A DNA stretch of 62,581 nucleotides, counting the filler. It is 4 parts of 4 records of this genome, joined end to end, with 100 filler letters (N's around TTAATTAATTAA, not from the genome) between each part and the next. Parts side by side here need not be neighbours in the genome. Positions count along the whole stretch, not along the records: positions 43,773 to 57,459 come from SRR20825019_1516; 3 more parts are not named here. One strand, 5' to 3'. Below are positions 41,527 to 62,023 of the stretch, piece by piece. Position numbers and translations under genes: made by a program. The first letter of the stretch is position 1, and the number at the start of each line of letters is the position of its first letter. The notes beneath the pieces are model-generated. The model made no database searches. It was not told the DNA's origin and was given only the letters and a program-made list of their open reading frames with translations.

Positions 41527-41587
41527 GGCGAGAACTCCGTTGCAGGAACCACCCTAGCGAAACACAAATTCCGCGAGTTCTCAAGAT

Positions 41588-41601
41588 AGAATGTTTGTTC
41601 C
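41588..41601. promoter_or_regulatory. Putative IolR operator upstream of iolC
   Basis: AGAA-N6-TTCC, followed by a further TTCCA..TGGAA inverted pair. Confidence 0.55.
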
Positions 41602-41628
41602 ATTGTTGGAATGGCGGCTGCGGCGGCA

Positions 41629-42459
41629 TCAGGCCTGCCGGCGTTTCTCTGCGATGCCCACGGTCAACGCCATGGCAAAGGCCATGCTGGCCGAAAGCGA
41701 GCGAAAACCGGCATGGTCAGCCTCGACCAGTTCGAACCAGATTTCGGCACTGGCCGCGAGAGGGGAGAGTGCCGAGTCGGTCAGCCCGACCACCGCAATG
41801 CCCCGTTCGCTCAATGCCAGTGCCTGCGCAGCGCTTTCGGCGGCGTAGGGCGAGAAACTGACGGCAAAAGCGGCATCGGCCGCGGTGGCCTGCGCCAATA
41901 GATCCTCGTCATTGCCGATAGCGGTGCTGACCACCCGGCAGGGCACTTTCAGCTTGCCAAAGGCATAGGCCATATAGGTGATGATGGGGAAACTGCGGCG
42001 CCGGGCAATCAGGTAGAGCGTGTCTGCGCGCGCCAGGATGGTGATGGCCCGCTCAAGCGCTTTGGCATCAATTGTATTGGCCAGCGCGTCGAGACTGTCA
42101 TGGCCGGCAGCCAGAAAGCCGTTGAGGATGGCGACGCCTTCGGTTTCGGTCGTGCCGCCCGATTCGAGATGGCGCAGCCTGTCTTCATAACTGCCATTGC
42201 GCTCTTTCAGCCGCTCCCGGAACAACTGCTGCAGGCCCGAAAAGCCGTCAAATCCGAAGTGCTGTGCAAATCGGACCAGGGTTGAGGGCTGGACTTGTGC
42301 GGCCTGGGCAATACTGGCGGTCGTCCCGAATGCCATGTCGTCGGGGCGTTCAAGGGCATAGCTGGCCACCTGCATCAGCCGCTTGGGCAATGTTGCGCGC
42401 ATTTCGACAATGGCGGCACGCAGACTGTCGAAGTCGCGTGGCGGAAGCTGGCCGGTCAT
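41629..42459 (-). CDS. iolR: MurR/RpiR-family regulator of inositol catabolism
   Basis: HTH AQVQPSTLVRFAQHFGFDGFS plus SIS domain SFSPY/LTDSALSPL; heads the iol operon. Confidence 0.9.
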   Translation of the reverse strand: MTGQLPPRDFDSLRAAIVEMRATLPKRLMQVASYALERPDDMAFGTTASIAQAAQVQPSTLVRFAQHFGFDGFSGLQQLFRERLKERNGSYEDRLRHLESGGTTETEGVAILNGFLAAGHDSLDALANTIDAKALERAITILARADTLYLIARRRSFPIITYMAYAFGKLKVPCRVVSTAIGNDEDLLAQATAADAAFAVSFSPYAAESAAQALALSERGIAVVGLTDSALSPLAASAEIWFELVEADHAGFRSLSASMAFAMALTVGIAEKRRQA

Positions 42460-42468
42460 CTGGTCCTC

Positions 42469-42486
42469 ATGGAATGCCTATTCCAT
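42469..42486. promoter_or_regulatory. IolR operator (autoregulatory)
   Basis: Palindrome ATGGAAT-GCCT-ATTCCAT containing an exact GGAA-N6-TTCC, 10 nt upstream of the iolR start. Confidence 0.75.
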
Positions 42487-42515
42487 TTTTGGAACAAATT
42501 GCGGCGCCCTGCAAG

Positions 42516-42545
42516 AAAAAGGCAGGACGGTTGTCCGTCCTGCCT
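42516..42545 (-). terminator. Intrinsic terminator after the DMT transporter gene
   Basis: Minus strand AGGCAGGACGG-ACAA-CCGTCCTGCCT followed by a T-run. Confidence 0.85.
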
Positions 42546-42568
42546 CTGATGGATCGCTATAAGAGCGC

Positions 42569-43540
42569 CTAAGCTGGTTGCAGCGAAGCGGGCTCCCGGC
42601 GATTTTCGATCCAGTAGATAAACACGGAAGCCCCGACGATCAGGGCGGCGCCGGGCCAGAACCAGACCGAGGGCACCTGGCCAAGCGCAACCCAACCGAC
42701 CAGGCCGCTCAACGGCACTTTCAGATCGCCAAAGGGTTGCAGATAGACCGCGTCTGCGGCCCTGTAGGCGAAGGCGAGCAGATATTGCGCCGCCGCGGTG
42801 AGAGCGCCGAGCAGCAGCAACAGCCAGATGCCGGTAATGTCAGGCAGGGCAAAGGGGAAGCCGGGCGCCATGGCCGTGGGCAGAACGCCAGAGAGCGCGT
42901 TGGCCACCAGCAGGATCGCCAGATGGTTGGGTGTCATCAGCACCAGAAGGGAAACCGTAAGGGTTTCCGGGCTCTCGTCCTTGCGCGTCAGATATTTGGT
43001 GAGAACATCGGTGGCGGCCCAAAGCGCCGCGGCAGTGATCGGTATCATAGCCTGCCAGCCAAGGCTTTCGGTTCCGACGCCCGAAACGATGATGGCGCCG
43101 ACAAATCCGGCCAGAGCGGCCACGATTCGCGCTGTCGACGCCCGCTCGCCAAGCAACAGGGTGGAGCCCAGGACAATGAAAAGCGGTCCAGTCGCCAACA
43201 ACGTTACCATCTGCCAGATCGGCACGCCGGAGGCGAAGCCATAGACAAACACATGAACACCCAGCGCCGAGACAAAGGCGCGAACTTCATGGGCAAGCGG
43301 GTGACTGGTCTTGAGATTGGAGAGCCCGATCCTCAGGATCAGCGGCAATGCGAGAACCGAGGCAATCAGATACTGCCAGAAGGCCATGCCGGTCGAACTC
43401 ATGCCGAAGCCACCATAGTCGACTGGTGTGGGCAAAATCGATTGCAGCGTATTGGTGCCGGCAAAGGCGATACTCGCCACCAGCATGAACAGAGCACCCG
43501 ACGTTGCGGCGCTATGCGAAGTAGAGGAAATCTGGCTCAT
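42569..43540 (-). CDS. ribN: DMT/EamA transporter, probable riboflavin importer RibN
   Basis: About 10 TM helices in an EamA duplication (AFWQY, LLLGERAS, LQPFGDLKVP); lies directly behind an FMN riboswitch. Confidence 0.8.
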   Translation of the reverse strand: MSQISSTSHSAATSGALFMLVASIAFAGTNTLQSILPTPVDYGGFGMSSTGMAFWQYLIASVLALPLILRIGLSNLKTSHPLAHEVRAFVSALGVHVFVYGFASGVPIWQMVTLLATGPLFIVLGSTLLLGERASTARIVAALAGFVGAIIVSGVGTESLGWQAMIPITAAALWAATDVLTKYLTRKDESPETLTVSLLVLMTPNHLAILLVANALSGVLPTAMAPGFPFALPDITGIWLLLLLGALTAAAQYLLAFAYRAADAVYLQPFGDLKVPLSGLVGWVALGQVPSVWFWPGAALIVGASVFIYWIENRREPASLQPA

Positions 43541-43541
43541 C

Positions 43542-43588
43542 TGTCGTCCTTTCCGTAACCAGTTTCCTCAGGGTTACGGGAGACGACA
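43542..43588 (-). promoter_or_regulatory. RBS-sequestering hairpin (riboswitch expression platform)
   Basis: Minus strand TGTCGTC-TC-CCGTAACC...GGTTACGG-AAAG-GACGACA-GATG pairs over the AAAGGA Shine-Dalgarno. Confidence 0.75.
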
Positions 43589-43643
43589 TGCCAGAATGGG
43601 CGCGGGCAATTATCCACGCACGCCGGCAAAGGCGTTTGGTCCC

Positions 43644-43672
43644 GTTCTCTTTCATCCGGACTATGACCGTCG
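43644..43672 (-). ncRNA. FMN riboswitch (RFN element), 3' end only, cut by contig edge
   Basis: Reverse complement CGACGGTCATAGTCCGGATGAAAGAGAAC matches the conserved RFN 3' segment (CCGACGGT..AGTCCGGATG.AAGA). Confidence 0.85.
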
Positions 43673-43772
43673 NNNNNNNNNNNNNNNNNNNNNNNNNNNN
43701 NNNNNNNNNNNNNNNNTTAATTAATTAANNNNNNNNNNNNNNNNNNNNNNNNNNNNNNNNNNNNNNNNNNNN
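43673..43772. other. Artificial contig spacer
   Basis: N44-TTAATTAATTAA-N44. Confidence 0.98.
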
Positions 43773-43984
43773 CCCCCCCCCCCCCCCCCATCAGTGGAAT
43801 CCGATAGGACCTTCGTCGTTATCAAGCTTTATTCCACACCACGCCCCCGAGCTGTGCAGTATTAACCTATCCTCCTGCTTCGACCTAGCAAACCCTCCGA
43901 CAGGCCAACCTCAAGGGAACACTGTGACTCGTTCACCCCGGCGTTCTACTGCCGTCTCGCTAGGGTGCATGGACAGCACGTGCT

Positions 43985-44014
43985 TGTGATGGCAGTGTGA
44001 TGGCAGTGTGATGG
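43985..44014 (+). repeat. Short tandem repeat, 11-bp unit
   Basis: TGTGATGGCAG about 2.7 copies. Confidence 0.75.
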
Positions 44015-44063
44015 GCAATGTTTGGCCATGCCTCTCGGGCGCGGCACTGGCTGAGACTGGGAC

Positions 44064-45149
44064 TCAGTGGGTCTCATCGCTGGAATTCAAGTGTAGCAAG
44101 TCAACAATGTCTTGCCTATTACGGTCTGCTGCCCAGTATAGCGCAGGCGTGCCGATGTGTTGGGAGTTCTTAACGTCAATCCCGGCCACGGCAACAAGCA
44201 TTTGCACTATGGAGAGGTGCCCGAACGCCGCGGCCCTCCCAAGAGGGGTATCCGATCCCTCACGGTCGGGCTGGTTCACATCGACGTTCATCTTCACAAG
44301 CTCAGCCACCACCAGGGGCCGGAACGCGTCCACCGCTATGAGCAGAGGAGTCATGCCATTCTCGTCATAGGCACCGATGTCATCGCTGAAGCTCCGCACC
44401 GCCGCGACATCCCCTGCTCGCGCAGCATCATGAACAGAGCTGTGCACGGGTGCTGGCAGCTGGCCCATCCACTCCTGATCCACCTGCACGAGGTGCATGG
44501 CAACCCCATCGTGTCCTTGGTTCGATGCCAGCCAGGCCGGGGTTCTTCCGTTCTCGTCCTCCTTGTAGCAGTCGCCTTCACCGCCCATGCGCAGCACCAC
44601 CTTCACCACACCCATGTGCCCTGCGCGCGCGGCATACCACAGCGGGGGGTGGCCATCATCATCACACTCCTCCCCGACCATGCCTTCTCTCAGCATCAGC
44701 TCCACCACATCTGGGGCATTGCTGTCACAAGCCGCTTGGAACGGCGTTGTATTGGAGTCATCGGGCCCAGGGGTTATGCCAAGGCCATTCAAGTAGCGCA
44801 CCATCTCCACGTGGCCACCGGCACACGCCAGCCAGAAGGGGGTTTGGCCATCATAGTTGATGGCCTCGGGGTCCCCCCCACCACTCACAAGGGTGACTGC
44901 AGCCTCAACATCACCCAAGGCGGCCGCGCAGCACAGCGCAGTGTTGCCATCGTTTGAGTTTCCCTTCTCAGTGGATGCCCCCAGGTCCAACAGCACACGC
45001 ACAACCTCCTGGCGCACCCGCGCCTCCTCTACACAGGCCAGCGCCACTTCCAGGGGTGTGCGCCCGTCGCCATCGTATTGGTCGACATCAGCTGCCAGGT
45101 CACGGACGTCTTCCACACAGCCCCGGCTCACAGCGTCGTGTATAGACAT
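44064..45149 (-). CDS. Ankyrin-repeat protein
   Basis: Start MSIHDAVSRG; repeated GRTPLE/GNTALC/GQTPFW/GHPPLW/GMTPLL/DTPLG...GH..V..L units. Confidence 0.9.
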   Translation of the reverse strand: MSIHDAVSRGCVEDVRDLAADVDQYDGDGRTPLEVALACVEEARVRQEVVRVLLDLGASTEKGNSNDGNTALCCAAALGDVEAAVTLVSGGGDPEAINYDGQTPFWLACAGGHVEMVRYLNGLGITPGPDDSNTTPFQAACDSNAPDVVELMLREGMVGEECDDDGHPPLWYAARAGHMGVVKVVLRMGGEGDCYKEDENGRTPAWLASNQGHDGVAMHLVQVDQEWMGQLPAPVHSSVHDAARAGDVAAVRSFSDDIGAYDENGMTPLLIAVDAFRPLVVAELVKMNVDVNQPDREGSDTPLGRAAAFGHLSIVQMLVAVAGIDVKNSQHIGTPALYWAADRNRQDIVDLLHLNSSDETH

Positions 45150-45199
45150 GCTGCCCCTTCGTGGTTGGTGCCTAGAGACGGCACGCACTGATATAACTG

Positions 45200-46040
45200 A
45201 AAACCAAGGCGGCCGCACGCCGCAATGCGGCCCAACCACCACCCTATTATGGCGGCCATCGGCCCCGGCGTGCGGCCCCGCCATGCCGGCCGGGCGAAGG
45301 ACTGTCGCCGCGCCGCAACGCCTGAGCGACGGACTGGGCGTGCGCTCGCCTCCGCCGGCGGCGAGGCCCCGCGTCCCGTCCGGACCGCCGCTCGGGGTGA
45401 CGCCGGCGGTGGCCGGCGGTGGCCGGCCGGCGCGCCGGGCGCGCCAACTGCCTCGCCGCGCCGCGGGCCCCGGCCCCGCGGCCCGGCCGCCGCCGGCGGC
45501 CCGCCGGCTGGCATCCCGGGTCGGTCCGGCGCGGGGCTCACCCCGAGCCGCAGGGCTCCGGCGGGCGGCCCCGGGGGAGTCCGGCCCGGCGCCCGGCCGC
45601 GCCCCGGGACGGAGCCCGGCTCGGCCACGGTGGACGTGTGTCAATCAACCAATCAAGGAGCCGGGGCATCATGATCAGCCCAGCCTTCGCCTGTCGCTTC
45701 ACTAACCGCGCACTCTGAAGGCGCTGGCGCTGCCGGGAGATTTCCTTCGATCGGGTGATCATTGCCCCCCCGGGGCCGCCGGGACGACCGCAGCAGCCAC
45801 GACGACTCCGGGCAGTCCGGTCGGTCGGGGCACCGTGCGATCCGGCGGGCGACGTCCTCGGCCCGGAGAACGTCGCCGGTCGGGTCAGTGGCCAGGCGCC
45901 CGCATGCGGGGGCCGGCGGCGCGCGGCGAATGATAGTGCAGCCGGGCGCCGCGTAGGGCCGCCCGGTCGCGCCCACCGGGCCGGGGTGCCTCTCATCACT
46001 CACCGTGGTGATCCGACCGGACAGCACACCAGGGCGGATG
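45200..46040. promoter_or_regulatory. GC/CpG-rich island, putative bidirectional promoter
   Basis: Extremely GC-rich stretch between divergent starts at 45149 (-) and 46344 (+). Confidence 0.55.
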
Positions 46041-46343
46041 ATGGTAGGTTATTAATGCAGTGCGCTCAGACACTCATCGGCTTCACCCGTCGGCGGGCAT
46101 GTTCGCTGCGCCGTCGCCGGATCCTTCGCCAAGGCCACCCAACACCCGCCCGATGGTTGAATGCCACCACCTGAAGCCAGGACTGCACCGACCGTGAAGC
46201 AGTCACTCCGTGACGTCTGCCCTGCCCAGCACTTGTCTGCTGGTGTGTGGTCACTCGAGGACTCCACCCCTTGACATATCGCCCTCGCTGCTCCAACAGT
46301 CACCCAAACTGCGTCGCAACAGCCGGCTGTCAGCACAGTAAGC

Positions 46344-49300
46344 ATGCCTCGTCCTGCAGTATGGTGCTGCTTGGCTCTGTTCGTTGCTGTCACTGTAGCC
46401 GCGATATCCAAGGTAAGCGGGTATACTGTCCGGCCGCGCTGGGGAGGACTGACTGAGCCTTGCCACAGAACGGAAATCTCCGAGCTGCGCCTGTGAACAC
46501 CCCTATATTCTTGCGCGCAAAGACCCTCTACCCAGCTGAGATGCATGCGCTCGGAGTGAACAGCCGGAGAATGCATAGCATGGGTGCGGGTATCAGCAAG
46601 GTCACCTACCTCGTGCAGTTCAAACCGGAGCTCAGCACTAGGGAGTGCCGGGCTGTAGCCACGGAGATCGGAGTGACGCTGGGGGACTTCATCCCGGAAA
46701 AGTCGTGGAAGGTCTACTGTCTACCCTCCAGTAAGATCTCTTAGGGGTGTGAAGGGTTTGCCTGCTAACCTGTGCTCTTCGTAGTTGCGATGCGCCTGGC
46801 CAACCACAATAGCGTGAACTTCGTGGTCGAATACCTTCCGGAGTACAGGGTAGACCCACAGCTTGCTGCCAAGAACAACCTTGCCCTGGCTGGTGCTGGC
46901 CCGGCAACCACCCTTGCCTCACCCGGGAGCGCGCAACTGATGGAGGAGGAGCTGGATGGGCCGGTGGTGTACTCGGTGTCCTCAAGCCCCTTCGACGATG
47001 GTCAGACCGTGGGGCTATTCTTCAACGTGGATGTGCAGGTTTTGCGAGCTGATGGCAAGACGGTCCACGAGCTGAGGGCTGATCTCGAGAGCTATCTTTC
47101 CCAGCGCCTGCAGAGCAACAAGGTTCACGCAGTAGTGTCGCCAGGTTCGCTCCGTCGTCTGGTGGTAACGGTGCCCAAGCGCGACGAATCTTCAGCCGCC
47201 GCCTTCCTGGCCGAAAGCCACTATGCGGACATGATTGAGGAGGAAGCAGATATCGTTCTGACCAACAGGCGCTCTGCCAGCATCCTTCAATCCGGAGAGG
47301 GCTCAAGCGCCAACTATAAGTTCCCCATCTGGGATGAAGGGCTCACTGGGGATGGCCAGATCATCGCCGCGGGTGACACCGGCCTCGACTGGAGTCACTG
47401 CGACTTCCGTGATACCAAAACCTCTGTATCAGCGGGTGTGACGGATAAGTCCCGTCGCAAGATTGTCTTGATCGACTCAGTGAATGGAGTGGAAGGCGAT
47501 TCACACGGACACGGGACTCACGTGATGGGGTCAATCGCTGGCAACATCGAGGATGGCCTCAGCGAGAACCGCGGTTTGTCGTACAATGCCCAGGTTATCA
47601 TGCACAACATCTTCACATCGAACGGGGGCCTCAGCCTGCCGGGGGATCTCACTACCCGCTATTTCAACATTGCGTATGATGCCGGCGCGCGCATCCACTC
47701 CAACAGCTGGGGCTCCCCATGCTGTCCGGGAAGTTCCTCCTACATGATTGATGGGCACTGCGCGTGGAACAGCTACCGGAGCTTCGATCAGGATGTGGAC
47801 CAGTTCATGTGGCAGAACAACGACATGCTGATCCTGTTCGCCGCGGGCAATGATGGGAGCTGCGGTGATGCCAACACCGTCTCCAACACTGCCAAGAACG
47901 GGATCACGGTGGGGGCCACCTCATACGAGAATGACATCGTGTACTTCACGTCGATAGGTCTCACCAGGGACGGGCGTTACAAGCCCGATATGGTGGCGCC
48001 CGGTTACAACATCGTTTCCGCAAGAACGACGTCCAGTCTGACGGATCTTAATTGTGGCACTCGGTACATGTCCGGGACTTCCATGGCTACGCCCCTCACA
48101 GCCGGCCTGGCGGGCCTGGTGCGTGAGTACTTTGCCAAGGGTTATCATCCCACCGGTGAGCCGGTCGCGGCCAATGCTTTCAATCCCAGTGCTGCCCTCG
48201 TCAAGGCTGTTCTTATGGCAAGTGCCCGACCCGTCTCCAGCGCCAGCACTCCTCGTAAGGAAGAAGGCTTTGGGCGCCCTGTGCTGGACACCACGCTGCC
48301 ATTCAAGGGAAGCACCTTTGCCATGTTCTCCTCCACCTCCACCGGCGGTGACCAGGAGCTTGACGAAGGCGAGAGCCGCGAATACTGTGTGGATGTTCAG
48401 ACCGGGGAGGCTATCCGGTTTACCCTTGTCTACACCGACAAGCAAGCTTCGACGACGGCGGCCAAGACTTTGGTGAATGACCTTGACCTGACCGTCCTCG
48501 AGGGAACCACCACCCTCTATCCCAACGGCCTCACAGGCCCTGACAGCACCAACAACGCCGAACAGATCATCGTTTCGAATCCAGCACAGCAGCGGTACTG
48601 CGCCACTGTGACCGCACGTACTGTGGTGACGAACCGGAAGCAGAACTATGCTCTGATCATTAGCTATACCCCCGCTTCAGGTGTGCCACAGCCCGAGCCG
48701 TGCGCAGACAGGTGCGCCAAGTGCACCGGTCCTGGCGAGGACGAGTGCACTGAGTGTACCGAGGGGAATTTCCTCACAGGGTCTTCCTGTGGGGCCTGTG
48801 CGGCGGGCACCTTTGAGAATTCGGCCGCCAGGACATGTGACTCGTGCAGCGCCTCATGCGCCACTTGTGTATCGGTTGCGACCCAGTGCACATCCTGTAC
48901 GTCGGGTCAGGTCCTTCATGGAAGTTCTTGCGTCGACACCTGTCCGACGGGGACCTACACCTTGGACAGCAAGTGCCTGGACTGCGACTCATCTTGCCAA
49001 GAATGTACCGGGCCAGGAAATAACCGGTGCTCGGTGTGCCGGCCCGGAATGGTTCACAATGGCGGGGCATGCCTGGACTCGTGTCCCGACGGTCGCTACC
49101 CCGATGCCAATGCGGTGTGCCAGCCCTGTGACGCTGCGTGTTTCAAGTGTGCAGACACCCCATCCAAGTGCATTGCATGCCACAATGACTTGTACTTGCT
49201 CGGAAATTCCTGCACGTCGAATTGCCCGGACGGGTATTACCGTGGCGCATCAGGGTCTGTCGACGCAAACAAGTGCATGGACTGCCCGGTCACATGCGCA

Positions 49301-52300
49301 ACCTGCTCGTCCTCTATGAGCTGCACAGAGTGCACTGATGGCCACTACCTCCACGGTGGCAGTTGCTCGGACACCTGCCCTAAGGGGTACTACGGTTCAC
49401 CCTCTGACCGGACATGCAAAGAAGGAGAGGCCCCGGGCCCACCCGCCTCTTTTGATGACAGTAAGCAGGGCAATAACCTTGTACTCACCTGGGCAGCACC
49501 TGTGACGGGGACTGCACCATTTAGCTACACTCTTTGGCGGACGCACAATGACAATGGAGCCGGCGAGACCAGGGTGGACCTCGTGTCCAACCAGCCCAAT
49601 GTCCTCACTCATAGTGTCCCCTATGACACCCTGCCGGAGGGCATCACCGTGGTGTTCCATCTGTATGCCGAGAATGGGGCTGGCCGCGGGTCTGAAATCG
49701 TGCTTGCTGTCGATATACCCTCCTCGGCAGTGCTGCCATCGCAAGTGACGAATCTGGTTGTTAAAGAAGACACCACTTCTCATGATTTGACGGTGACATG
49801 GGAGCCGCCTTCAGTCGGCACAGCGCCCATAGTCTACCAGATTATCATGGCGACATCAGCTGACATGACCAGCGGGATGGTGGAGCTTGCCTCGGCGCAT
49901 GCGGCCACGTCACTAACTGTGCCCTCTGGCCAGACCATGGGTTCTACCACCTACTACTTCGCTGTTCACGCGGTGAACGGGGTGGGACAGGGGCCTGCAG
50001 CCACGCAGTCCGTGGCCACTGCGGCCAGGCGTGTCGAGTGCTCGATCAATAACTACTGGGAGGGCCCCTGCGGCACATTCTCTGTTCCTGAGATCTACTA
50101 CAGCATGGTGCATCGCCGCATCGAGGCCTGTGTTGCTTTTGACGGCAGTGTGGACACCATACTGTCTGTGCTTCCCGAATCACGTTCGAGCTTCCATGAG
50201 AACACCCAGATGACCATCCCGGGCATTGATGCAGACTACAGCAGCGTCGGCAGTGCCTCTCGCACAACCTTGTCCGACGATGAGTGCTACTACAAGAAGT
50301 ATTGGACGCTCTCCAGTGACAACATCGAGGCCATCCAAGCGGCATATCCATCAGGAACCGTGCCCATTCATCTTGTTCACCGGCTTGCGACCACCGAGTC
50401 GTACCGTGTCCCTGAGGAGGACTGGAAGACCACCCTGACCGACACTTCTCTTTCTGTGAAGGTCACACGGGTCGGCGACAACCACCAGTGGCGAGTCGCG
50501 ATATTCCCTGTGGTACGCCCAGGCGCGGCATTGGACACCATGAGCGTGTGTCTGAAAAAGGATGTAACGCGTAACAAGGGCTGGCATCCTACGACGATGA
50601 AGGTGGACTGCCAGGACCACGTGTGGGGCTCCAATGCGGCGGACCTCCGGGCCACCGGGTACAAGTTGAATGATATCTTGTTCAAGTCGGAGTCCCCATA
50701 TTACACGGAAATTCCTGATGTCGAGCTCGGGTTTGGTTCGGAGACGTACAACACCGTGGGCACACAAAAGGCTTACAGCTTGTTTTACGGCGGGGCTTTC
50801 TGGGAAGGCTTGTTGGGTCACCATGGTATTGAAGAAACCACTCTTGGAAAGAATCCCAAGTTCGTAGTGACTATCTTACCCATGCGGGAGGCCACCCTTA
50901 GCATGGCAGGCAAGCAGTCCGATGACCATGGGCACATCAAGTCGTTCTTCCGCGGCGTCCGCGATGCGGCGGCCTTTGATGAGACTACCTATGACTTTGT
51001 GCAGTATGTGTACCTATCCACCGATTACAATGACGGGAATTTCCGCTCCTTTGCCGCTGGGGGCAAGACGTATAACTACTTCAACGTATTCCAAGGCAGC
51101 AGTGTCTTGTTCAACGAGGGTGTGAACACGGTGCTTCATGAGATGGGACACCAAGTGTTCTCGCTGGTGGACCTCTATGACGGCTTTGGCATGAAGTTCC
51201 CCACCGGAGTGATCGATCCCCACAACATGCCCAACGAATACGGCAGCATCATGTCCAAGAACTTCGCACTGAAAAAGGTTTCAGACACACTGGTGCAGGG
51301 CTATGGCGGAAACACCTACACGGAGGAGATGCACAATGCAGGCATCCCTCCTTTCCGGGCCACTGATCCCGCCAACTGGAGGCTCACAGTCGACAGCGTT
51401 GTTCGCATAGCTGGTGCGAATCCTATGTGTACTGCTCAGCAGTTCAATGATGGCGAGTGCCACGATTGCAACGCGATGACCTATCTGACATGCTCTACGG
51501 TGCGAGAGCCTCAGCCCCCATCAGAGCCCGTAAATGTGTTGACCAAGGAGGCAGGCGTGGACATAGTGGTCTCGTGGTCACCTCCTACAAGTGGTGCTAC
51601 ACCTGTCACATATACTGTAACCATGGCCGATAATGTCGAAATCACCAGCAATGCACGCGTCGTCGCGGAGACCTCGGGCCTTACTGCCACTGCCTCCTAC
51701 GTGCAATTCCCGGTATCCTCAAAATCACTTGTCTTCATCCGTGTGACAGCATCCAACAATGATGGAAGCTCTTCGGCGACTGTCGAGCACTTGACTGGAG
51801 AGCGACCTGTTGCGCCCACCAAGCCGGAGATGTTTGAATGCACGTATTCACATTCATCAGACGTGGTCATGTGCTCTTGGATGAAGCCCTTGGTTGGAAC
51901 GGAGCCGTTGTCATATCGCCTTCGATTCGTGCGCCCAAGCGGTGATGAGCGGACCTCCCTGCATCAGTCCATGGATCCTGTATACATTCCCGTGGTAGAG
52001 TTGGCGACCAATGAGGCCAACTTTGCCCGTGGTGGCACGGGCACCGTGTATGTGACAGCATCTAACGAATGGGGAGCCAGCGAGGAAGATTCTGATAGTT
52101 TCTTAATCACCGACCCTCCAAGTGTGCCTGGTGATCTGAAGTTCCAGGAGGATGTGTCGACGATGATGCTCAAGATCTCTTGGGCGATCCCAACCCGTGG
52201 CCAGGAGCCTATTAGCTACGCTCTGTCTATGGCGAAAAATGCAGACTTCACTGAAGCTGTTGTCGCTCTGGATAGTTCCCTGGCATCTCCCAGTTACGAA

Positions 52301-55300
52301 ATCCCCCTCTCTTCGCTGAGTGGTGGCACTACGTACTACTTCAAGGTGATCGCGTCAAATAAGTTTGGAAACAGTCCACCCTCCATTGACTCCAAGTACA
52401 TCGATTCGCGTGACGTTAAGCCGGGCCCGGTGCGTAATCTGAAGACTGGTCAGACCGGCTCCAACCTGCTGATCACATGGGATGAGCCACTGGAAGGATC
52501 CCAGCAGATGGAGCCGTATAATGTCACTGTGGACAATGTTTCGTACTATTCAGCTGTGACTCATCAGCGTATCAGCCTCGACTCGCTCACGAACGGTCAG
52601 GTCTTGACCATCAGTGTGACCGCGAGGAACGCAGCGGGTGACGGGCCACCCGTAACCATTACCCACACAGTACAAAAGGAGGCCGTGTGCTCTGTCGAAG
52701 ATATCGGCGCTTGCGGTGTGTTCACTGCCCGTTGGGTTAACCATAATCTGCCTGGAAAGTTTTTGTCGGCTTGTATTGCATTCGATGGGTCAAGCGAGCT
52801 GCTGCTGGGGGCTGGTTTTACCTCGTATCGATTGAGGATAGCCCCTGATGGAGTCTCTGGTTCCAATGTATACACTATGAACACACTGACCTCCGAATTC
52901 CTGAACGATGAGCACTGTATTGTCGATTGGGGACGCTTCCACCTAGACGACGCCTCTATTGATAGCATAGTTCAAGGCACCGACTCTGCGCAAGTGCCCA
53001 TACGTGTGCAATTGGATGTGAAGTCCGCTGATACCGCGTGGAAGTCCGTCCTAGATGCATCGGTGCCCACCACAGTATACCCCCGTACTATGAACAAGAA
53101 GGTGTTCCGAGTCGCTGTAATTCCAGTGGTTGAGAGTGTGTCTACGTTCAATGATATGAACGTTTGCTTCATACGAACGGCTGGTGAGGTCGGCTGGTTA
53201 GGTGCATCATCTCAAACCAATTGCACGGTGAACACGGCGCCGTTCTCCGGTGAACACAATGTTCGATCTCATTCACTGCGGGAATTGTTGTACTCAAATA
53301 GCGATGCGACTCCTCTGACGGATATTGATAATGGCGGACAGGTACCTGTGAATGACCAGACGTACAGTGTTGGGGACGTGAATGCATACTCACTGTCGTA
53401 TCCTACCCGGTTCTGGCAGGGTCTCCTTAGAGACCACGGGGTGGAGAACACGGTAGCACTCGGTGCGTCACCTCAGCTTTCGGTGGAGGTGATTGACCCT
53501 GTTCGGGCTGAAAGTTCCACCAAGACTGCATCACTCAATCTCGATGGCACCATGAAGATTGTGATGGACTACACCCACTCGGCCTCGTGGAAAGCGGGGA
53601 TTGACCTTGCCCAGTATGACTATGTAGTCTACGCATCTGTGATGTCCGACCAAGACTCATCGTTCGGGTCCTTTGTACTACGCAATGTTTCGTATGTGTC
53701 CTTCCCTTTCAAGCACGCCAATGATGTCCCCTACAATGTGGGCATCAAGGCGATGGTGCAGTCTTTGGGTTATCTCTTGTTTGGCTTGAGTGACCTTGCC
53801 ACCGGATTCGGTGTTCAGTACCCCAGGGGGGTGCCGCACGTATATGACGATTCCTTCCCACAGCTCACTGCCTGCGTCATGGCCAATCGGTTTGCCTATG
53901 CAAAGCCCCAGACAGGCGATATCGCGCAATCGTACAACACACACTTCTATGACAAGGTCCTCGAGGAAGACGGGGTCCCTAACTTCCACACTCAGGACTT
54001 GGAGAACTATCAGCTCTGTGTGCATTCGCTGATTCAAATCACTGGCACTGAGAATGTCAATTGCGATGAAAATCAGTATTACAGTGGCATGTGTGGAGAG
54101 CAGTGCAACCCTTACAATTATTACAAATGCGATGCCTCATCAATTGTTCCTGGGGATTTGTCGAACATCCAGACGTACTTCGACAAGGACGGATACTTTG
54201 CAGTGCTTGGTTTTGGTCCGTCGGACGGCACATTGCCCTTGAGCTTGATGGTGGACTTGACCCCAGCCGAAGCTGGTGCCACAGAGGTGGATGCATGGAC
54301 TGTCGAGGAGGTCGACACTCACGATGCACACTTCTATGGTCACAGGACCGTGGAAGACATGGGGCTAACACCAGGAGCGTTGTACTCCGTGGCGTTGTAC
54401 GGTGAAAATTCTGCAGGCACTGGTGCTGTTATCGAGGTCAGCCGCTATGTGCCGTTCTATCCCAATGCTCCACGTGATCTGGAGCTGGGCCAAACCAACG
54501 AGGCCGTTGTGGCCACATGGGGCGAACCTACGCCCCCGACTGGCGTGGCCGGCAAGGACTTGGAATATGTTTACGATGTCAAGATTGGATCAAATTTCTA
54601 TGAGACTGTGTCTTCCCACCGGGCGGAGATCCCCATTGAGAACTTTGAGATGAACTACTCCTATTACATTACCATTGTTCCCAAACTGAAGCAAACTATG
54701 TTCCCGGGTGACTACGTCGGCCCTGACATGGCAGAGGGCCCGCCCGCCTTCAGCAACATTTTCATTGAAGAGGTTGTTGATCCTCCGAGTTCTGCTACCA
54801 ATCTCGAGGTTTCCGAAGACTCTAGTGGAATTCAGGTGACCTGGGCTGCGCCTCTCATTGGTTCTAACCCTATCGAATACCGTGTGAGCATGGATAGTTT
54901 CGAGGAGACGACCACCGATACCTCCATGACCATCCCAACAGACTTGTACAGCCCCAGTACGACTTACGTTGTCCACGTGGTTGCATTCAACAAGGGGGGT
55001 GAGGCGCCGTCAGTCCAGGCGGAACACACCTCGGATCCTCGAGGCTCCGCTCCGGGCGCAGTGCAATACCTCGCCGCAGAGGAAACCGAGTTCGGTCTTC
55101 GTGTGAGCTACGAACCTCCCACCACCGGGGACCCAGTCCTGACGTACTCCATTTCTATCCATGAGACCAAGGGTGCCCTGGACATCTTGATGGGCACAGT
55201 TGAGACCCAAAATCTCTCCAAGGAGTTTGAACGCGATCTTTTTGATGTAGGGGTGGCCTACACTGTTACCGTGATCGCAAAGAATACTGCCGGATCAGGG

Positions 55301-57193
55301 CCTGCCACCACCACGCAAACGGGATTCATGGACCCTCCCGGGCCTGTCGCAAGTATGTCCGTGTACCAGAACAGGTGGTCTGTCGTTGTGGAATGGGAGG
55401 AGCCCCTTGATGGCAGCAGCCCCATGGCATATACCCTTGTGATGGCCACCAATGAAGACATGACGGAAGGCCGGTATGTCTTGCGGTACAAGAGCAAAAG
55501 GAAGCCATATCGCCAGAGCGTGTCCGTGCGCGGCTTTGCCAAGGCAGGACAGCTGAATGAAGAGACAACATATTACTTCCAGCTTTTTGCAGAAAACGTT
55601 TACGGGAAAGGCCCGGCCGAGATTGTGCCGTTCGAGGTTGAGCCCCGCAAGTGCAGGTCGCGGCGAAAGCCCAAAAGATGTCCGCAGGGTTGTGTACGTG
55701 CATGGGAGGAATGTGACGAGCCTGAAGAGTGCCCGGCCGGGACCCATCTTTGTTCAAATGGCAAGTGTAGGACCAAGTGCAAGCCTATCAATGGCTGCCC
55801 GTTAGGCATGGTGATGTGTCCCAACGGATTCTGGTGAGTTCATGTGGTCCTCTTTAATTTCTGAATCTAACTGAGTTGTGCCAGCAAATCCGATGAGAGC
55901 AAGTGCCCTTCCTTCAAGAAGTGCGCCAATGGAAAGGTTCTCTGCTGGGATAACCGCTGCAGGGCGCCCACTAATTCCAAGTGCAATGCCCCGTGGGTTC
56001 AGAGCATCACGAGCCATAATGTCGTGATTGATATTCAGTCGGGCTCGGAGAGGAGTGGCTTCTTGTCGGCCGTGTCTTCGACTCCTTTGTCGCAGTCCAC
56101 CACCAGTTACGTCTCGTCAATTTCGGAAGACGATGATACCACTTCCACGGTGGGCATAGTAAGCGTATCCGAAGGGACGTTCAGCGAGAAGCTCCAGATA
56201 CACGTGGGCGCCGCTCGCGATGAGACGATTCGCAACAGTATCACAATAAGCTACAACAACCTGGATGAAGAGACCACGCCCAAGATACTGACACCCGTGA
56301 TCAATCTTTCTCTCGAGTCTGAGACTGGAGAGGCACTCACCACTATGCCAACGATGGCCAAGCCATTGACGATCCAGTTGGCGGCGGATTCACTACCGGA
56401 GGGAGTGTCCGTGTCTGATCTTTGCTTGGCGTTCTTCCACGACGTGGACATGGTCTTTGACGGTGTCACGATCCCGGCTTACGCGTTAAGCTGCACGCCA
56501 TATGAAGTGACTCAGCAGAGTGGATATCTGAAGGGGAAGACTACGCACTTCAGCAGCTATGCATTCGTGGACAAGAATAGCATGAAAACATATGAAACGC
56601 ACTCCAACAGCGACTCTGGCAGCAGCGATCCCACTCCCATCGATCTCTTTGTGATGGTTGGCTTACCCACCATTGTGCTCGTGTTCATCAGTGCCTTGAT
56701 ATTGCTTGCATTCTGTGTGATGGTTTGTATTGTACTGAGGACAGGAAAGAAACAGTCTTCGAGTCTGGCCAGCCAAGACGCCAGCTTGAGCTCAATCAGG
56801 GACAATGGCTTGTCGGAATCATTGAATCCAGTATTTACTTCAAGTCTCCCTCCAGTAGGCCCTCATGTTCGCCGGCCTTCGACAGTGGAGCCTGCTGTCC
56901 TGTGGAAGTCGAACCGTATGAAGTCTGTGGACATGGGTGATGGCAGGTCCACATCTGTTGCAGGAAGTGAGGATGCTAACTCCCTGGAGATGTCCGATCT
57001 TGGATCATCAGCCGGCAGCAGTGCCTCTTCCCACTTGATGTCGTCTGCAGAATCTCGTCAGGAGGCTGAACTGAGGAAATGGAAGGCTATCCAGGCGGGT
57101 GCTAGTGATGGAAATACACCTGCACCACAGCCGGCGGTCACGGATTCGGCGCCCCGCCGCAAGAAGTCGAAAAGGGTGTCCATCTCGGTGTGA
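46344..57193 (+). CDS. Giant type I membrane protein: S8 subtilisin (Kp43/Tag-like), furin-like Cys repeats, FN3 repeats, two metzincin-like modules, HFS domain, TM
   Basis: Exons 46344-46412, 46469-46730, 46785-55833 and 55885-57193 splice in frame to 3,562 aa. Signal MPRPAVWCCLALFVAVTVAA; triad GDTG, HGTH, GTSMA plus oxyanion AAGN; HEMGH at 51137; TTHFSSY (HFS at 56546); TM about 56645-56735. Confidence 0.85.
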
Positions 57194-57459
57194 TCAATGC
57201 AAAACTAATGCGCGAGCAGCATAGGTGTCAATAGGGTTCTGTAAACGCTTCTTAAATCTATTTAGTGTTGTATATATACCACCATCAAGAGGGCTGGCGA
57301 CAATGTTCCCTGATGTGTACTCATAGCGGCTGGCTCCCTGACAAAATACAAGAGTTGGTACTGCTGCGCAATGATTCGCTTCAGTGTTCAGGAAACACAC
57401 GCACTGCAAAAAAGCGTGCGTTTGATGTTCCGTTTGCGATTGGATGGACAAACTCAAAC

Positions 57460-57559
57460 NNNNNNNNNNNNNNNNNNNNNNNNNNNNNNNNNNNNNNNNN
57501 NNNTTAATTAATTAANNNNNNNNNNNNNNNNNNNNNNNNNNNNNNNNNNNNNNNNNNNN
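57460..57559. other. Artificial contig spacer
   Basis: N44-TTAATTAATTAA-N44. Confidence 0.98.
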
Positions 57560-58769
57560 CGGCGGCACGGTCGGCGATATCGAGGGTCTACCGTTCTTCG
57601 AGGCCATCCGTCAGCTTGGCAATGAATTGCCTCGCAATCACGCAGCCTATCTGCATCTGACCCTGATGCCTTATATCCCCTCGGCCGGTGAACTGAAGAC
57701 CAAACCGACCCAGCACTCGGTCAAGGAGCTGCGCTCAATCGGCATCGCACCGGACGTCTTGCTGGTGCGCTGTGACCGCCCGATCCCGGAAGGCGAGAAG
57801 AAGAAGCTTTCGCTGTTCTGTAACGTGCGCGAAACCGCCGTGATCCAGGGCCTCGATGTCGGCTCGATCTATGACGTGCCCGTCGCCTACCACAATGAAG
57901 GTCTCGACCGGGAAATCCTGGCGGCGCTCGGCATAACCGATGCGCCCGAGCCCGATATGACCTCCTGGGAAGAGGTATCCCGCCGCTATCACAACCCCGA
58001 AGGCGAAGTGAACATCGCTATCGTGGGCAAATATACCGGCCTCAAGGACGCCTATAAATCGCTCTCCGAAGCGCTCACCCATGGCGGCATCGCCAACAAG
58101 GTGAAGGTCAACCTGCAGTGGATCGATTCGGAAGTCTTCGAGCGTGACGATCCGGCACCCTATCTCGAACATGTGCACGGCATCATGGTGCCTGGCGGCT
58201 TCGGTGAACGCGGCTCCGCCGGCAAGATCGAGGCAGCCCGCTTTGCCCGCACCAAGGACGTGCCCTATTTCGGCATCTGTTTTGGCATGCAGATGGCCTG
58301 TATCGAAGCTGCGCGGAACACTGCCGGCATCAAGAATGCCTCCTCCACCGAATTCGGCCCCACCAAGGAGCCGATTGTGGGCATGATGACTGAATGGCTG
58401 AAGGGCAATGAAAAGGAAGCCCGTTCCGCCGAAGGCGATCTGGGCGGCACGCTCCGCCTTGGTGCCTATCCGGCCCAGTTGACCCGAGGCTCACGCGTTG
58501 CCGACATCTATGGCACCACCCGGATTTCCGAGCGCCATCGTCACCGCTACGAGGTGAACATGGACTATCGCAAGCGCCTCGAAGCCAATGGCCTGCTGTT
58601 CTCCGGCGTCTCGCCTGATGGGACGCTGCCTGAAATCGTCGAGCGCACCGACCACCCCTGGTTCATCGGCGTCCAGTTCCATCCCGAACTAAAATCAAAA
58701 CCCTTCGAGCCGCATCCGCTCTTCACCAGCTTCATCGCTGCCGCGATGGAGCAGAGCCGGTTGGTCTAG
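57560..58769 (+). CDS. pyrG: CTP synthase, 5'-truncated
   Basis: [45 protein letters not shown]. Confidence 0.98.
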
Positions 58770-58774
58770 GCCGG

Positions 58775-59098
58775 CTATTCCAGCGGCCACACCTCGACCA
58801 CGCCATGCGCCACGGCGCATGGCACCTTGGCCACCTTCTCGATGGCATCTTCCAGAGTGTCGGCCTCGATAATGGCAAATCCGGCAACGGGCAGGGATGC
58901 GGCCATGAAACTGCCGTCGGTGACCTGCATCGCCTTTCCCTCGGGATTACGGACCTGAACCGGCCGCCCCGCTATGCCAACCAGCGCCCCTTCCGCTTTG
59001 AGTTTCTCGTCATGGGCATGCGCCGCGTCCCGCACGGTCTGAGGTGTGCGGTCATAGCCCTGGCGGTCGCCATAGCCGATTGTCACAAATTTCGGCAT
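58775..59098 (-). CDS. YciI/YCII-family protein
   Basis: VTDGSF...VAGFAIIEA...EDAI...GVVEVWPL pattern. Confidence 0.8.
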   Translation of the reverse strand: MPKFVTIGYGDRQGYDRTPQTVRDAAHAHDEKLKAEGALVGIAGRPVQVRNPEGKAMQVTDGSFMAASLPVAGFAIIEADTLEDAIEKVAKVPCAVAHGVVEVWPLE

Positions 59099-59239
59099 GT
59101 CAGTCCTCCTGTACCCTCATAACAACTGTGGCGAACAAATCACGGTTCCGCCGCCTGCCCAATGCGCATGTGACCGTATGGGCGAATATGCTAGGAAGAG
59201 CCGCCTGGCGCACCAGGTGCCCCACATCGGAAAAACGCC

Positions 59240-59416
59240 ATGGCCGAGATCATCAACCTCCGCACCGCCCGCAAGAACAAGACCCGCGCCGAAAAGGCCG
59301 CGACGGCCGAACAGAACCGCGCCAAATTCGGCCGCACCAAGGCCGAGAAGCTCAAGGGCGCGAGCGAGAAATCACGTGCAGAAAAGCACGTTGATGGGCA
59401 CAAGCGCGAGGAGTAG
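59240..59416 (+). CDS. DUF4169-family small basic protein (58 aa, not in the ORF track)
   Basis: MAEIINLRTARK...AEQNRAKFGRTKAEK...VDGHKREE. Confidence 0.85.
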   Translation: MAEIINLRTARKNKTRAEKAATAEQNRAKFGRTKAEKLKGASEKSRAEKHVDGHKREE

Positions 59417-59449
59417 CGCGGAACCAGCGCCAATCAGGATACCAGGGCG

Positions 59450-60469
59450 CTAATCCTGGGCAGCGCTTGCTTCCTCCACACCGACCACCCCGATAATCTC
59501 CGCTAGCAGGTCATGCAGCGCGTCGCGATGGCCGTTCCCGGCGGAGGGCGAGAACTCGTCCGACGTCATCACCACGGTCAGGTCCAGCGCCGGCACGATA
59601 TAGATCATCTGTCCGCCATAGCCCCAGCCGTAGCGCACCGCTTCGCCGCCGATCTCCCGCAGGAACCAGCCATAGCCATAGCCGTCGCCGCTGAATCGGG
59701 AATTGGTCCGTTCCACCCAGGACTGCGCAATCCAGTCTTCCGAAACGATCCTTGAGCCATCCGGCGCCAGCCCACCCGTGCGAAACACCTCCCCGAAGCC
59801 CAGGAGCGAGTGTGGACTCATCGCCATCTGGTTGCCACCCAGGTAAATCCCCTGCGGATCGCGCTCCCATCCGGCAATATCAAACTCCGGGACAGCCCCG
59901 AACCAGTCCTCGGCCAGATCCAGGGTCGAACGCCCGCTCACCCGTGTCAGGATGGCCGAGAGCAGATGGCTCGAGCCTGTCGAATACTGCATCGCGCCGC
60001 CCGGATCGGTTTCGAAAGCCTGTGCAAGTGCCGAGCGCACCCAGTTGTTACTGGCCACCCAGCGGCCATAGTTCGGCCCGGATGTACGACCGAGTCCGGC
60101 CTGCATCGACAGCAAATGCCCAACCGTCACCATATCCAGTCGAGGATCCGCATCGGCAGGAAAATCATCGCTCAGGAAATCGGCAATCGGCTGGTCAACC
60201 CCTTCGATCAGTCCCTTGTCGATGGCAATACCGACCAGGGCCGACACCACGCTTTTGGAGGCCGACTTGATATTGGTCGGATCGCCCGGCGCATGGCCGT
60301 CATAGCCGCGCTCGGCCAGGATGTCGCCTTCCTGCGCCACAACCACCACTTCGAGCGGTTCAAGGGTATCGGCCGCTTCAAGAACGGCAGCGAGATCTTG
60401 CGTCTGCGCCAGGGCGGGCAAGGGTGAAAGGACGAACAGGACGGCGAGCAGGGCAGGTGATGTCTTCAT
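59450..60469 (-). CDS. Secreted serine hydrolase (beta-lactamase class C-like)
   Basis: Signal peptide; SASK (SxxK), HLLSMQAGL, YST and GYGGQ motifs. Confidence 0.9.
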   Translation of the reverse strand: MKTSPALLAVLFVLSPLPALAQTQDLAAVLEAADTLEPLEVVVVAQEGDILAERGYDGHAPGDPTNIKSASKSVVSALVGIAIDKGLIEGVDQPIADFLSDDFPADADPRLDMVTVGHLLSMQAGLGRTSGPNYGRWVASNNWVRSALAQAFETDPGGAMQYSTGSSHLLSAILTRVSGRSTLDLAEDWFGAVPEFDIAGWERDPQGIYLGGNQMAMSPHSLLGFGEVFRTGGLAPDGSRIVSEDWIAQSWVERTNSRFSGDGYGYGWFLREIGGEAVRYGWGYGGQMIYIVPALDLTVVMTSDEFSPSAGNGHRDALHDLLAEIIGVVGVEEASAAQD

Positions 60470-60544
60470 GTCCCATGCTTCGCGGCCACTTGCGGCGAAA
60501 ACATGTGGAGGCGGTGCCTTGCGCCTCCACAGTTTCGTGATCGA

Positions 60545-60976
60545 CTACCAGTCCACCTGGCAGACCGCCCCGTCCGGCCCGAACTGCATGCTGTCCGGTG
60601 TGTACTGAAAGATCTCGATCTTCACCCCGCTCGGATCGGCCAGCCAGCATTGCCAGGTATGGTCGACACCCAGTTTTTTGTCGGTCACCGCAAGGCCCTT
60701 GGCCCTGGCATTGGCCATGAACCCATCGATATCGTCGGTCTCAAAGCAGATATGGTTGATCTGGTTGCTTTCCTCGAACCGGCTCTCGCCCTTCTTGAAC
60801 ACCTCGACAAAGGTGCGATTGCCGAAATCCAGATAGAAGCCGATCCGCTCGTCGCCGCGCTTGAAGTCGAACTTGGGTGCCACGCCCATCGCGTCACGGT
60901 AGAACGTTTCTACGGCGTCGAGGTCGCGGGCAAAAATACAGGTATGCGCCACCTGTTTGACGAGGGGGTTGGTCAA
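60545..60976 (-). CDS. VOC/glyoxalase family protein
   Basis: HTCI...FYRD, NHICFETDD, DPSGVKIE. Confidence 0.88.
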   Translation of the reverse strand: MTNPLVKQVAHTCIFARDLDAVETFYRDAMGVAPKFDFKRGDERIGFYLDFGNRTFVEVFKKGESRFEESNQINHICFETDDIDGFMANARAKGLAVTDKKLGVDHTWQCWLADPSGVKIEIFQYTPDSMQFGPDGAVCQVDW

Positions 60977-61066
60977 GGGTCTCTCCTCCGGAACGAGCGA
61001 ACTGGACAGTTCGCGCTGACATGTTAGGACAGGAAGAACACGCAGACCAGCGGGGAGGGGTCAAAA

Positions 61067-62023
61067 ATGGCGCGCATTGTTATTATTGGAGCCACGGGCC
61101 ATATCGGCACATATCTGGTGCCCCGCCTGGTGCGCGCGGGCCATGACGTGGTGGCGGTTTCGCGCGGCGCCGCGCAACCTTACCTCCCGGACACGGCCTG
61201 GAACCAAGTAGAGCGTGTCACCATCGACCGCGCCGCTGCCGAGGCAAATGGAGATTTCGGCCGGGCGATCGCCGATCTCAAGGGCGATATCGTCATCGAC
61301 AATATCTGCTTCACGCTGGAGAGCGCCCAGCAACTCGCCGAGACGCTCATCGGGAAGGTGCGCCATTTCCTCCATATCGGCACGATCTGGACCCACGGAT
61401 TTTCCGAAGTGGTCCCGACACCCGAAGACGTCACCAAGCGCCCCTTCGGCGACTATGGTGTTCAGAAGGCGGCCATTGAGGACTATCTGCTCGGCCTGGC
61501 GCGGCGCGACGATTTTCCGGTGACCATTATCCATCCGGGCCACATTGTCGGGCAGGGCTGGTCGCCGCTCAATCCCGCCGGCCACTTCGACAATGCCGCT
61601 TTCCAAACCATTGCCCGCGGCGAAACCCTGGCCCTGCCCAATTTCGGCATGGAAACGGTGCATCATATCCATGCCGATGACATTGCGATCCTCCTCATGC
61701 TGGCCATGGCCAATTGGAGTGTCTCGGTCGGGGAAGCCTTTCATGCCGTATCGCCCGGCGCCGTCACACTCCGGGGCTATGCAGAGGCCATGTATCGCTG
61801 GTTCGGCAAGGAACCAGCAGTGAGTTTCCATTCCTGGGACGACTGGAAGGCCATGCAAACGCCGGAGAACGCCGCCGCCACCTGGGAGCATGTCGCACGC
61901 AGCCCAAATGCCAGCATTGAAAAGGGCCGTCGTCTGCTGGGTTATGCGCCACGCTACACCTCGCTGGCCGCCGTGCAGGAATCGGTGTCCTGGCTGCTGG
62001 GCAACGGAAAACTTGCGCTCTAG
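61067..62023 (+). CDS. NAD-dependent epimerase/dehydratase family protein
   Basis: GATGHIG Rossmann motif; YGVQK (YxxxK); HADD. Confidence 0.9.
   Translation: MARIVIIGATGHIGTYLVPRLVRAGHDVVAVSRGAAQPYLPDTAWNQVERVTIDRAAAEANGDFGRAIADLKGDIVIDNICFTLESAQQLAETLIGKVRHFLHIGTIWTHGFSEVVPTPEDVTKRPFGDYGVQKAAIEDYLLGLARRDDFPVTIIHPGHIVGQGWSPLNPAGHFDNAAFQTIARGETLALPNFGMETVHHIHADDIAILLMLAMANWSVSVGEAFHAVSPGAVTLRGYAEAMYRWFGKEPAVSFHSWDDWKAMQTPENAAATWEHVARSPNASIEKGRRLLGYAPRYTSLAAVQESVSWLLGNGKLAL

Follow-up and report, generated by a model that had tools for sequence, protein, structure and literature searches.

The stretch of DNA analysed here, referred to throughout as the window, is 62,581 nucleotides long and consists of four contigs (1-25582, 25683-43672, 43773-57459 and 57560-62581) with spacers of N's around TTAATTAATTAA between them (window 25583-25682, 43673-43772 and 57460-57559). 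Entirely within the third contig, on the forward strand at 46344-57193, lies a gene for a very large protein that begins with a signal peptide and a subtilisin-like serine protease and ends with a transmembrane helix and a cytoplasmic tail. The reading favoured here, held with somewhat better than even confidence, is that of one eukaryotic gene encoding a type I membrane protein of 3,562 residues, which would carry proteases of two kinds at a long distance from the cell surface and could be released by self-cleavage at the tripeptide HFS. The features of the gene are as follows.

46344-46412, + strand: exon 1, start codon and signal peptide, 23 codons (N-terminal hydrophobic stretch in the translation)
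46413-46468, + strand: intron 1, 56 nucleotides, GT..AG, with CTGAC (predicted from sequence signals)
46469-46730, + strand: exon 2, start of the S8 pro-region (weak BLASTP matches to six giant S8 homologues)
46731-46784, + strand: intron 2, 54 nucleotides, GT..AG, with CTAAC (predicted)
46785-55833, + strand: exon 3, the main exon, 9,049 nucleotides (within the open frame 46772-55837)
47348-48268, + strand: S8 subtilase catalytic domain (Pfam PF00082, E 1.9e-41)
48269-48694, + strand: beta domain after S8, KP-43-like (alignments to 5fax and 1wmd)
48695-49435, + strand: furin-like Cys-rich repeats, 15 CxxC (Pfam Furin-like_2, E 5.2e-10)
49439-50011, + strand: FN3 domains 1-2 (hidden Markov model, HMM, made from the protein's own repeats, E 1e-31 and 1e-30)
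50033-51508, + strand: module 1, N-terminal beta-sandwich and metzincin-like catalytic domain (HEMGH 51137-51151, Asp 51170, Tyr 51176, Met 51251)
51524-52663, + strand: FN3 domains 3-6 (own-repeat HMM, E 1.5e-26 to 1.4e-30)
52682-54142, + strand: module 2, divergent copy that no longer has the zinc motif (QSLGY at 53759-53773 in its place)
54155-55630, + strand: FN3 domains 7-11 (own-repeat HMM; the second copy, 54467-54676, weak at E 0.19)
55646-55996, + strand: Cys-rich stretch across intron 3, starting with the polybasic RSRRKPKR, 55655-55678 (translation)
55834-55884, + strand: intron 3, 51 nucleotides, GT..AG (confirmed by a contig of run X1)
55885-57193, + strand: exon 4 to the stop codon (translation and X1 contig)
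56147-56590, + strand: juxtamembrane beta-rich domain with HFS (56546-56554), candidate self-cleaving domain of ZU5/GAIN-B/MAIN-like kind (profile match)
56645-56737, + strand: transmembrane helix, 31 hydrophobic residues, then RTGKK (sequence)
56738-57190, + strand: cytoplasmic tail, 151 residues, 22% Ser, ending SISV (sequence)

It had been proposed from the letters alone, in what is called here the sequence-only reading, that three short introns join these pieces into a single protein of 3,562 residues, and the join is exact, the four exons giving 10,689 nucleotides, or 3,562 codons plus the terminal stop, uninterrupted by any other stop codon and with the bulk of the protein in a single open frame of 9,066 nucleotides. 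All three introns have GT..AG ends and a CTRAC (CTGAC or CTAAC) 14-21 nucleotides before the AG. Intron 3 is confirmed by a 2,296-nucleotide contig of the public run X1, which matches the window at 54871-55832 and 55884-57217, differs from it at 8 positions and leaves out exactly these 51 nucleotides with their GT..AG ends, and splicing of the eukaryotic type is thereby shown. The same contig links the large exon 3 to the transmembrane exon 4, which contradicts the alternative that transcripts end at the stop at 55837 with the membrane part a separate gene; the joint speaks for the existence of the joined form, and bears on neither the level nor the full length of the transcript. The X1 contigs together match 52936-57447, with 6 of the 11 at 99% or more, and as they cover the gene only from 52936, leaving 46000-52935 uncovered, they have no bearing on its expression or on introns 1 and 2. 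These two introns are predicted: if retained, intron 1 would bring a TGA about 50 codons on from exon 1, and intron 2 a stop after 4 codons. The peptide of exon 2 matches six giant S8 homologues at their residues ~19-108, which is the pro-region just past the signal peptide, although only weakly (BLASTP E 0.003-0.16 in a database of 120 proteins).

The head of the protein is the most easily recognised of its parts. Judged by its sequence the S8 domain is of the KP-43 subfamily and its triad is intact, as had been read earlier; it scores 142.7 bits against a Pfam cut-off of 21.8, and D308, H353, N466 and S543 (codons starting at 47375, 47510, 47849 and 48080) stand in the motifs DTG, HGTH, GN and GTSMA, with the order of the triad and the oxyanion Asn preserved. 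The closest solved structures are SubHal (5fax, E 5.8e-54) and KP-43 (1wmd, E 1e-51), with alignments that extend beyond the catalytic domain to residue 428 of 433 in the first and 423 of 434 in the second. As they reach near to both C-termini, the beta domain that follows the catalytic domain is taken to be the KP-43 one. In KP-43 and SubHal, as here, the catalytic and beta domains with triad and oxyanion Asn are found together, but there they make up nearly the whole chain of secreted bacterial enzymes of ~43 kDa, whereas here they form the head, at the N-terminus, of a eukaryotic membrane protein of 3,562 residues. The best relatives of the domain among large proteins are 38-40% identical and mostly bacterial, with a few eukaryotic ones, one of them named tagC by its source, and a literature search for KP-43 subtilases in protists returned nothing specific.

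Behind the protease head comes a long stalk, whose furin-like repeats and 2+4+5 arrangement of FN3 domains had been described correctly. The HMM made from the protein's own repeats gives 12 FN3 matches, of which 11 fall into the blocks of two, four and five (ten at E<=2e-24) and the twelfth is spurious (E 1.0), and Pfam fn3 (PF00041) matches exon 3 at E 5.9e-43 over six stretches. The transmembrane stretch and Ser-rich tail likewise stand as first read. The Cys-rich stretch at 55646-55996 matches no Pfam family. Between the last FN3 domain and this region lies the polybasic RSRRKPKR, which we take to be a possible site for a processing protease and so a second route of shedding, and the C-terminal SISV (57179-57190) presumably resembles a class I PDZ-binding tail.

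Set between the FN3 blocks are two copies of a module of ~490 residues (protein residues 1169-1680 and 2053-2559), which share 27% identity (E 1e-47 and 2e-47), in agreement with the two copies first noted. HExxH occurs once in the whole protein, in module 1, where the motif reads HEMGHQVFSLVD with Ser for the Gly of the family consensus. In module 2 the H, E and H have become Q, S and Y (QSLGY for HEMGH). Searched in full with HMMER, 1.84 billion representatives yielded 40 relatives of the module (E<=0.001), with identities of 36-39% for the best. Those that were looked up come from metagenomes and metagenome-assembled genomes (MAGs) and are either unnamed or called 'hypothetical', and several of the database relatives begin with a lipoprotein-like signal peptide and carry dockerin, CARDB or thrombospondin-type repeats. 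Amongst species-representative genomes there are at least 6 stand-alone loci of the module, all of those listed lying in archaeal MAGs and 32-44% identical to the query alignment of five sequences; one is from Aenigmatarchaeota, three from Nanoarchaeia/Nanoarchaeota, one labelled Methanosarcinales and one unclassified. Among the matches listed from species-representative genomes the family is otherwise seen only in archaeal MAGs, and these are mostly DPANN.

Across 35 aligned members of the family H373, E374, G376, H377, F380 and Y386 are conserved in 90% or more, and N365, D384, M411 and L455 are invariant. The consensus HEMGHQIFGLxDLYDG...ACIMAK contains HExxHxxxGxxD, with the Asp 7 residues after the second His, a Tyr 2 further on, and the invariant Met 27 residues past the Asp in a C-I-M context, as judged from the alignment. 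This motif is one residue longer than the HExxHxxG/NxxH/D of metzincins, so that a canonical metzincin motif was ruled out. The earlier description of the module as metzincin-like holds for its motif and for its predicted fold, but the site is that of the igalysin variant. An AlphaFold2 (AF2) model of module 1 has a mean predicted local distance difference test score (pLDDT) of 89.6 and a predicted template modelling score of 0.90, and by this predicted structure the fold of the catalytic domain is metzincin-type. Weaker signs point the same way: the family profile matches MMP-14 at the active-site helix (E 0.043), sub-threshold Pfam matches in the 35 members include Reprolysin_3 in 11 and Peptidase_M64 in 9 (best E 0.0028), there is an M6 domain match at E 0.0015, and the nearest named Atlas clusters, at 0.86-0.87, are Reprolysin, CLCA and M64/M6, all of metzincin type. 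A phmmer comparison of module 1 with the PDB sequences gave only a RuBisCO match (E 0.49), judged to be chance.

The nearest likeness is to the igalysins. According to a 2025 account, IgAse of Thomasclavelia ramosa has H539ExxH543xxxG547xxD550, Y552 and C606-I-M608, an arrangement described as unique to M64 within the metzincins, and in 3P1V and 4DF9 the catalytic domain comes after a beta-sandwich (PMC12237041). The module family shares with the igalysins, as that account gives them, the HExxHxxxGxxD, Asp as third ligand, Tyr at +2, the C-I-M Met-turn and the preceding beta-sandwich. It differs in that the Glu after the Asp, which in IgAse is described as binding a structural zinc, is a Leu in the module family, and the Met-turn Cys is a Ser in module 1; the structural zinc site is also said there to take two Cys of a C-terminal helix, and the module family was not found to have this site. 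Membership of M64 was thus rejected, because neither module reaches the Pfam Peptidase_M64 cut-off (no match for modules 1 and 2) and the residues that bind structural zinc in IgAse are lacking. In ADAM and adamalysin proteases the third zinc ligand is a His at +6, in contrast to the Asp at +7 of the module; ADAM disintegrin and reprolysin domains of Pfam are found nowhere above cut-off here, and the S8 domain, the dead copy and eleven FN3 domains are additions of this protein. The module is therefore read as a beta-sandwich followed by a metzincin-like catalytic domain with an igalysin-type site, belonging to an unnamed family. Module 1 would be an active zinc endopeptidase, zinc binding and activity both being predictions, whilst module 2, which lacks metal and catalytic residues, would be a pseudo-enzyme that probably serves binding or spacing. 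Two active metalloprotease domains are ruled out by the lost motif, and the dual-class protease proposed earlier accordingly keeps its metalloprotease in module 1 alone, the loss of both His and the catalytic Glu in module 2 having passed unnoticed in the sequence-only reading. As the site is kept in the one and lost in the other, it can be argued that there has been selection on catalysis in module 1.

The last domain before the membrane is the one on which release would depend. The Ser of its HFS lies 30 residues before the transmembrane stretch, with 27 residues between the two, and the domain stands between ectodomain and surface anchor, the position expected of a GAIN-B, MAIN or ZU5-type domain. 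MAIN (microbial GAIN-like) domains are described, in a 2026 preprint, as cutting between the F and S of HFS with the fragments remaining associated, and the proteins that bear them as having a signal peptide, enzymes and adhesion domains, the MAIN domain and then an anchor (10.64898/2026.05.12.724683). Autoproteolysis at HFS or SFS, where a beta-sandwich ends, is also described for the ZU5 domains of PIDD and UNC5 and the FIIND of NLRP1 and CARD8, with HFS the tripeptide of PIDD and Nup98 (PMC3210808). Single-pass GAIN proteins of protists were also sought in the literature, with no specific result.

Two bacterial giants among the S8 relatives, P0089 and P0095, whose S8 domains are 36% identical to the one here, have S8, Ig-like domains and a Pfam ZU5 domain (E 5e-07 and 3e-06) running to THFSKY/NHFSKY, followed by three SLH anchors. 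An HFS-bearing ZU5-type domain of this sort, ending HFSKYTVM, occurs at 33 loci of Bacillota in species-representative genomes, and an HMM was built from these 33 domains, which had been fetched from the genomes partly by means of the pattern HFSKYTVM. Against exon 4 it gives 7.0 bits (E 3e-4 with a single target) in two collinear pieces, a strand '...KPLTIQL' and the HFS. Against residues 85-240 of exon 4 it gives 10.9 bits, a score reached by 0 of 1000 shuffles, and the part upstream of HFS by itself gives 5.3 bits, reached by 1 of 1000. When the whole protein is taken in windows of 156 residues the top score belongs to the HFS domain (up to 10.8 bits), and windows that end before HFS score 4.2-4.8 bits against 2.6 for the best elsewhere, the eleven FN3 domains included. 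A ZU5 cluster was also the best named lead in the Atlas, at rank 9 with a score of 0.85. The domain seems, then, to be weakly but specifically like the bacterial ZU5/MAIN-type self-cleaving domains, and self-cleavage at HFS is predicted with a probability put at a little over one half. The candidate self-cleaving domain of the sequence-only reading has thus gained a weak profile match.

Taken together, the protein is probably best read as a surface-tethered, releasable protease of two classes. After removal of the pro-region, the HFS domain would cut its own chain between Phe and Ser in the secretory pathway, so that a protease ectodomain of ~3,350 residues would be held non-covalently on a membrane stub of ~210 residues, from which force or unfolding could release it. 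Both proteases might then act on extracellular protein, whether that of food, of the matrix or of the cell's own coat, on the surface or away from it, with the dead module 2 binding or spacing. A bolder version, which is put forward tentatively and is doubtful, would make the protein a eukaryotic single-pass counterpart of bacterial MAIN release, its ectodomain set free by force on gripping prey or matrix, with a metzincin family that came from prokaryotes; one live and one dead copy suggest capture from prokaryotes, then duplication and the loss of catalysis in one copy.

A number of points weigh against a releasable dual-class protease, and most of them concern the HFS domain. Pfam, with ZU5 and GPS included, gives no match to it even at E 10, a word-index search of 2,271 proteins of 763-2,175 residues found no homologue of the region, and of the 87 stretches at which a metagenome scan with exon 4 met a pattern none was a relative. 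AF2, given the single sequence, produced a model with a pLDDT of 37, and the placing of HFS between two predicted strands shares that low confidence. Compared pairwise, the domain is at chance level with P0089 (z 0.8, 102 of 500 shuffles reaching the score) and modestly above it with P0095 (z 3.0, 9 of 500). The profile scores of 7-11 bits are small in absolute terms, and where it covers HFS the match is to some degree circular because the bacterial set was fished in part with a pattern that contains HFS; the tripeptide itself would be expected ~0.2 times by chance in a protein of this length, as a rough figure from residue frequencies. Several of these points would suit a permanently tethered surface protease or adhesin, in which HFS is a chance tripeptide within an ordinary beta-rich stalk and shedding, if any, is the work of other proteases, for instance at RSRRKPKR. 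That explanation is rather unlikely, although by no means negligible, as the stretch ahead of HFS outscores 999 of 1000 shuffles and all other parts of the protein, with the two Ig-like sandwiches as well as the eleven FN3 domains included, the extended motif TTHFSxY is that of the ZU5-type domains in the related bacterial S8 giants, and the domain lies just before the anchor, where MAIN domains lie.

The metalloprotease half of the reading has points of its own to meet. In module 1 the motif Gly and the Cys before the Met-turn are both Ser, no Pfam or NCBIfam model scores above cut-off on either module, and the igalysin structures (3P1V, 4DF9 and IgAse) appear in neither of two VIA fold-search lists, from which an unlisted family is not thereby excluded. 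The structural check asked of AlphaFold and Foldseek likewise came out only in half, the model being good but Foldseek giving no match at E<=0.001, with the rows listed being Ig-like and confined to the N-terminal part. It could be supposed that S8 is the sole general protease, with both modules serving for binding or with module 1 a peptidase of narrow specificity for glycoproteins, in the manner of the mucin O-glycopeptidases, but this is improbable given that module 1 keeps all the metal-site residues conserved in the family (H, E, H, D, Y, M), in contrast to the loss of H, E and H in module 2. As for the gene model, introns 1 and 2 are predicted from sequence signals, exons 1-3 are without support beyond the present assembly apart from what X1 covers, and X1, the only run listed with this locus, has no record of its library type, with no RNA run among the matches listed. 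The window is moreover four joined contigs, and the assembly is a mixture, because bacterial genes occur on contigs 2 and 4 (PlsX, a TPP enzyme, PfkB+DUF2090, CTP synthase and a beta-lactamase family protein) whereas contigs 1 and 3 are of eukaryotic appearance. Even so, an artefact, whether by chimeric assembly or by the fusion of two or more genes into one model, is very improbable indeed: the gene lies inside one contig, independent X1 contigs match 52936-57447 with one of them bridging intron 3, and an open frame of 9,066 nucleotides with recognisable domains in order excludes chance.

The surface-tethered, releasable protease therefore remains the reading of choice, and it may be set beside the systems it most resembles. 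The MAIN proteins, such as YfkN of B. subtilis in the preprint, and P0089 and P0095 have, like the protein here, a signal peptide, enzymes or adhesion domains, an HFS domain and an anchor, but their anchors are sortase or SLH ones, whereas the protein here is anchored by a eukaryotic transmembrane helix that leads into a cytoplasmic tail. The domains of P0089 and P0095, which may be MAIN domains in the sense of the preprint, are ZU5 by Pfam, a term absent from that preprint. PIDD, UNC5, NLRP1, CARD8 and Nup98 are cytoplasmic or nuclear in this respect, in contrast to the HFS domain here, which is extracellular and not matched by Pfam ZU5.

The sequence-only reading had recognised no characterised protein with this architecture. 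The combination of S8, module, FN3, HFS and transmembrane helix was indeed found in 0 of 6,043 candidates, a word-index search for the module in proteins of 1,658-5,277 residues returning no match, and S8 in 0 of the 33 module homologues scanned; the claim is tempered by the comparable bacterial layout of S8, Ig, ZU5 (THFSKY) and SLH. What is new in the databases searched is the combination, the pair of live and dead copies, the unnamed family and the eukaryotic setting, each part being of a known kind, and the domains fused to MAIN in the tables of the preprint may already include S8 or M64-type partners.

No major paradigm is altered by these findings, although several are of more than local interest. 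The module family, unnamed in Pfam and NCBIfam and with a rare igalysin-type zinc site, is a new family for protease classification, and the archaeal MAGs, mostly DPANN, that make up its listed matches in species-representative genomes point to a possible transfer from one domain of life to another. With a serine protease and a metalloprotease on one chain, and a dead copy of the latter beside the live one, the protein would offer a natural system in which to study the roles of pseudo-protease domains. If self-cleavage at HFS were true, for which the evidence is weak, the bacterial principle of anchor, cleave and release would reach a single-pass eukaryotic enzyme and provide a link to the GAIN domains of adhesion receptors.

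Some further observations concern the surroundings of the gene. Within 57078-57459 the summed depth of X1 contigs rises to 181 just 3' of the stop codon, compared to ~11 over the gene; loose contig ends lie at 57278, 57312 and 57322, and one contig has 7 differences. The jump in depth may reflect a repeat or other abundant sequence in the 3' flank. Upstream of the protease gene and on the opposite strand, an open frame of 526 codons (44064-45644, -) encodes ankyrin repeats (Ank_2, E 4e-41), and the G+C content of this stretch is 68% against 51-59% for the protease gene. In the first contig an open frame of 1,899 codons (19624-25323, -) has a single family match, to IQ calmodulin-binding motifs (E 6e-11).

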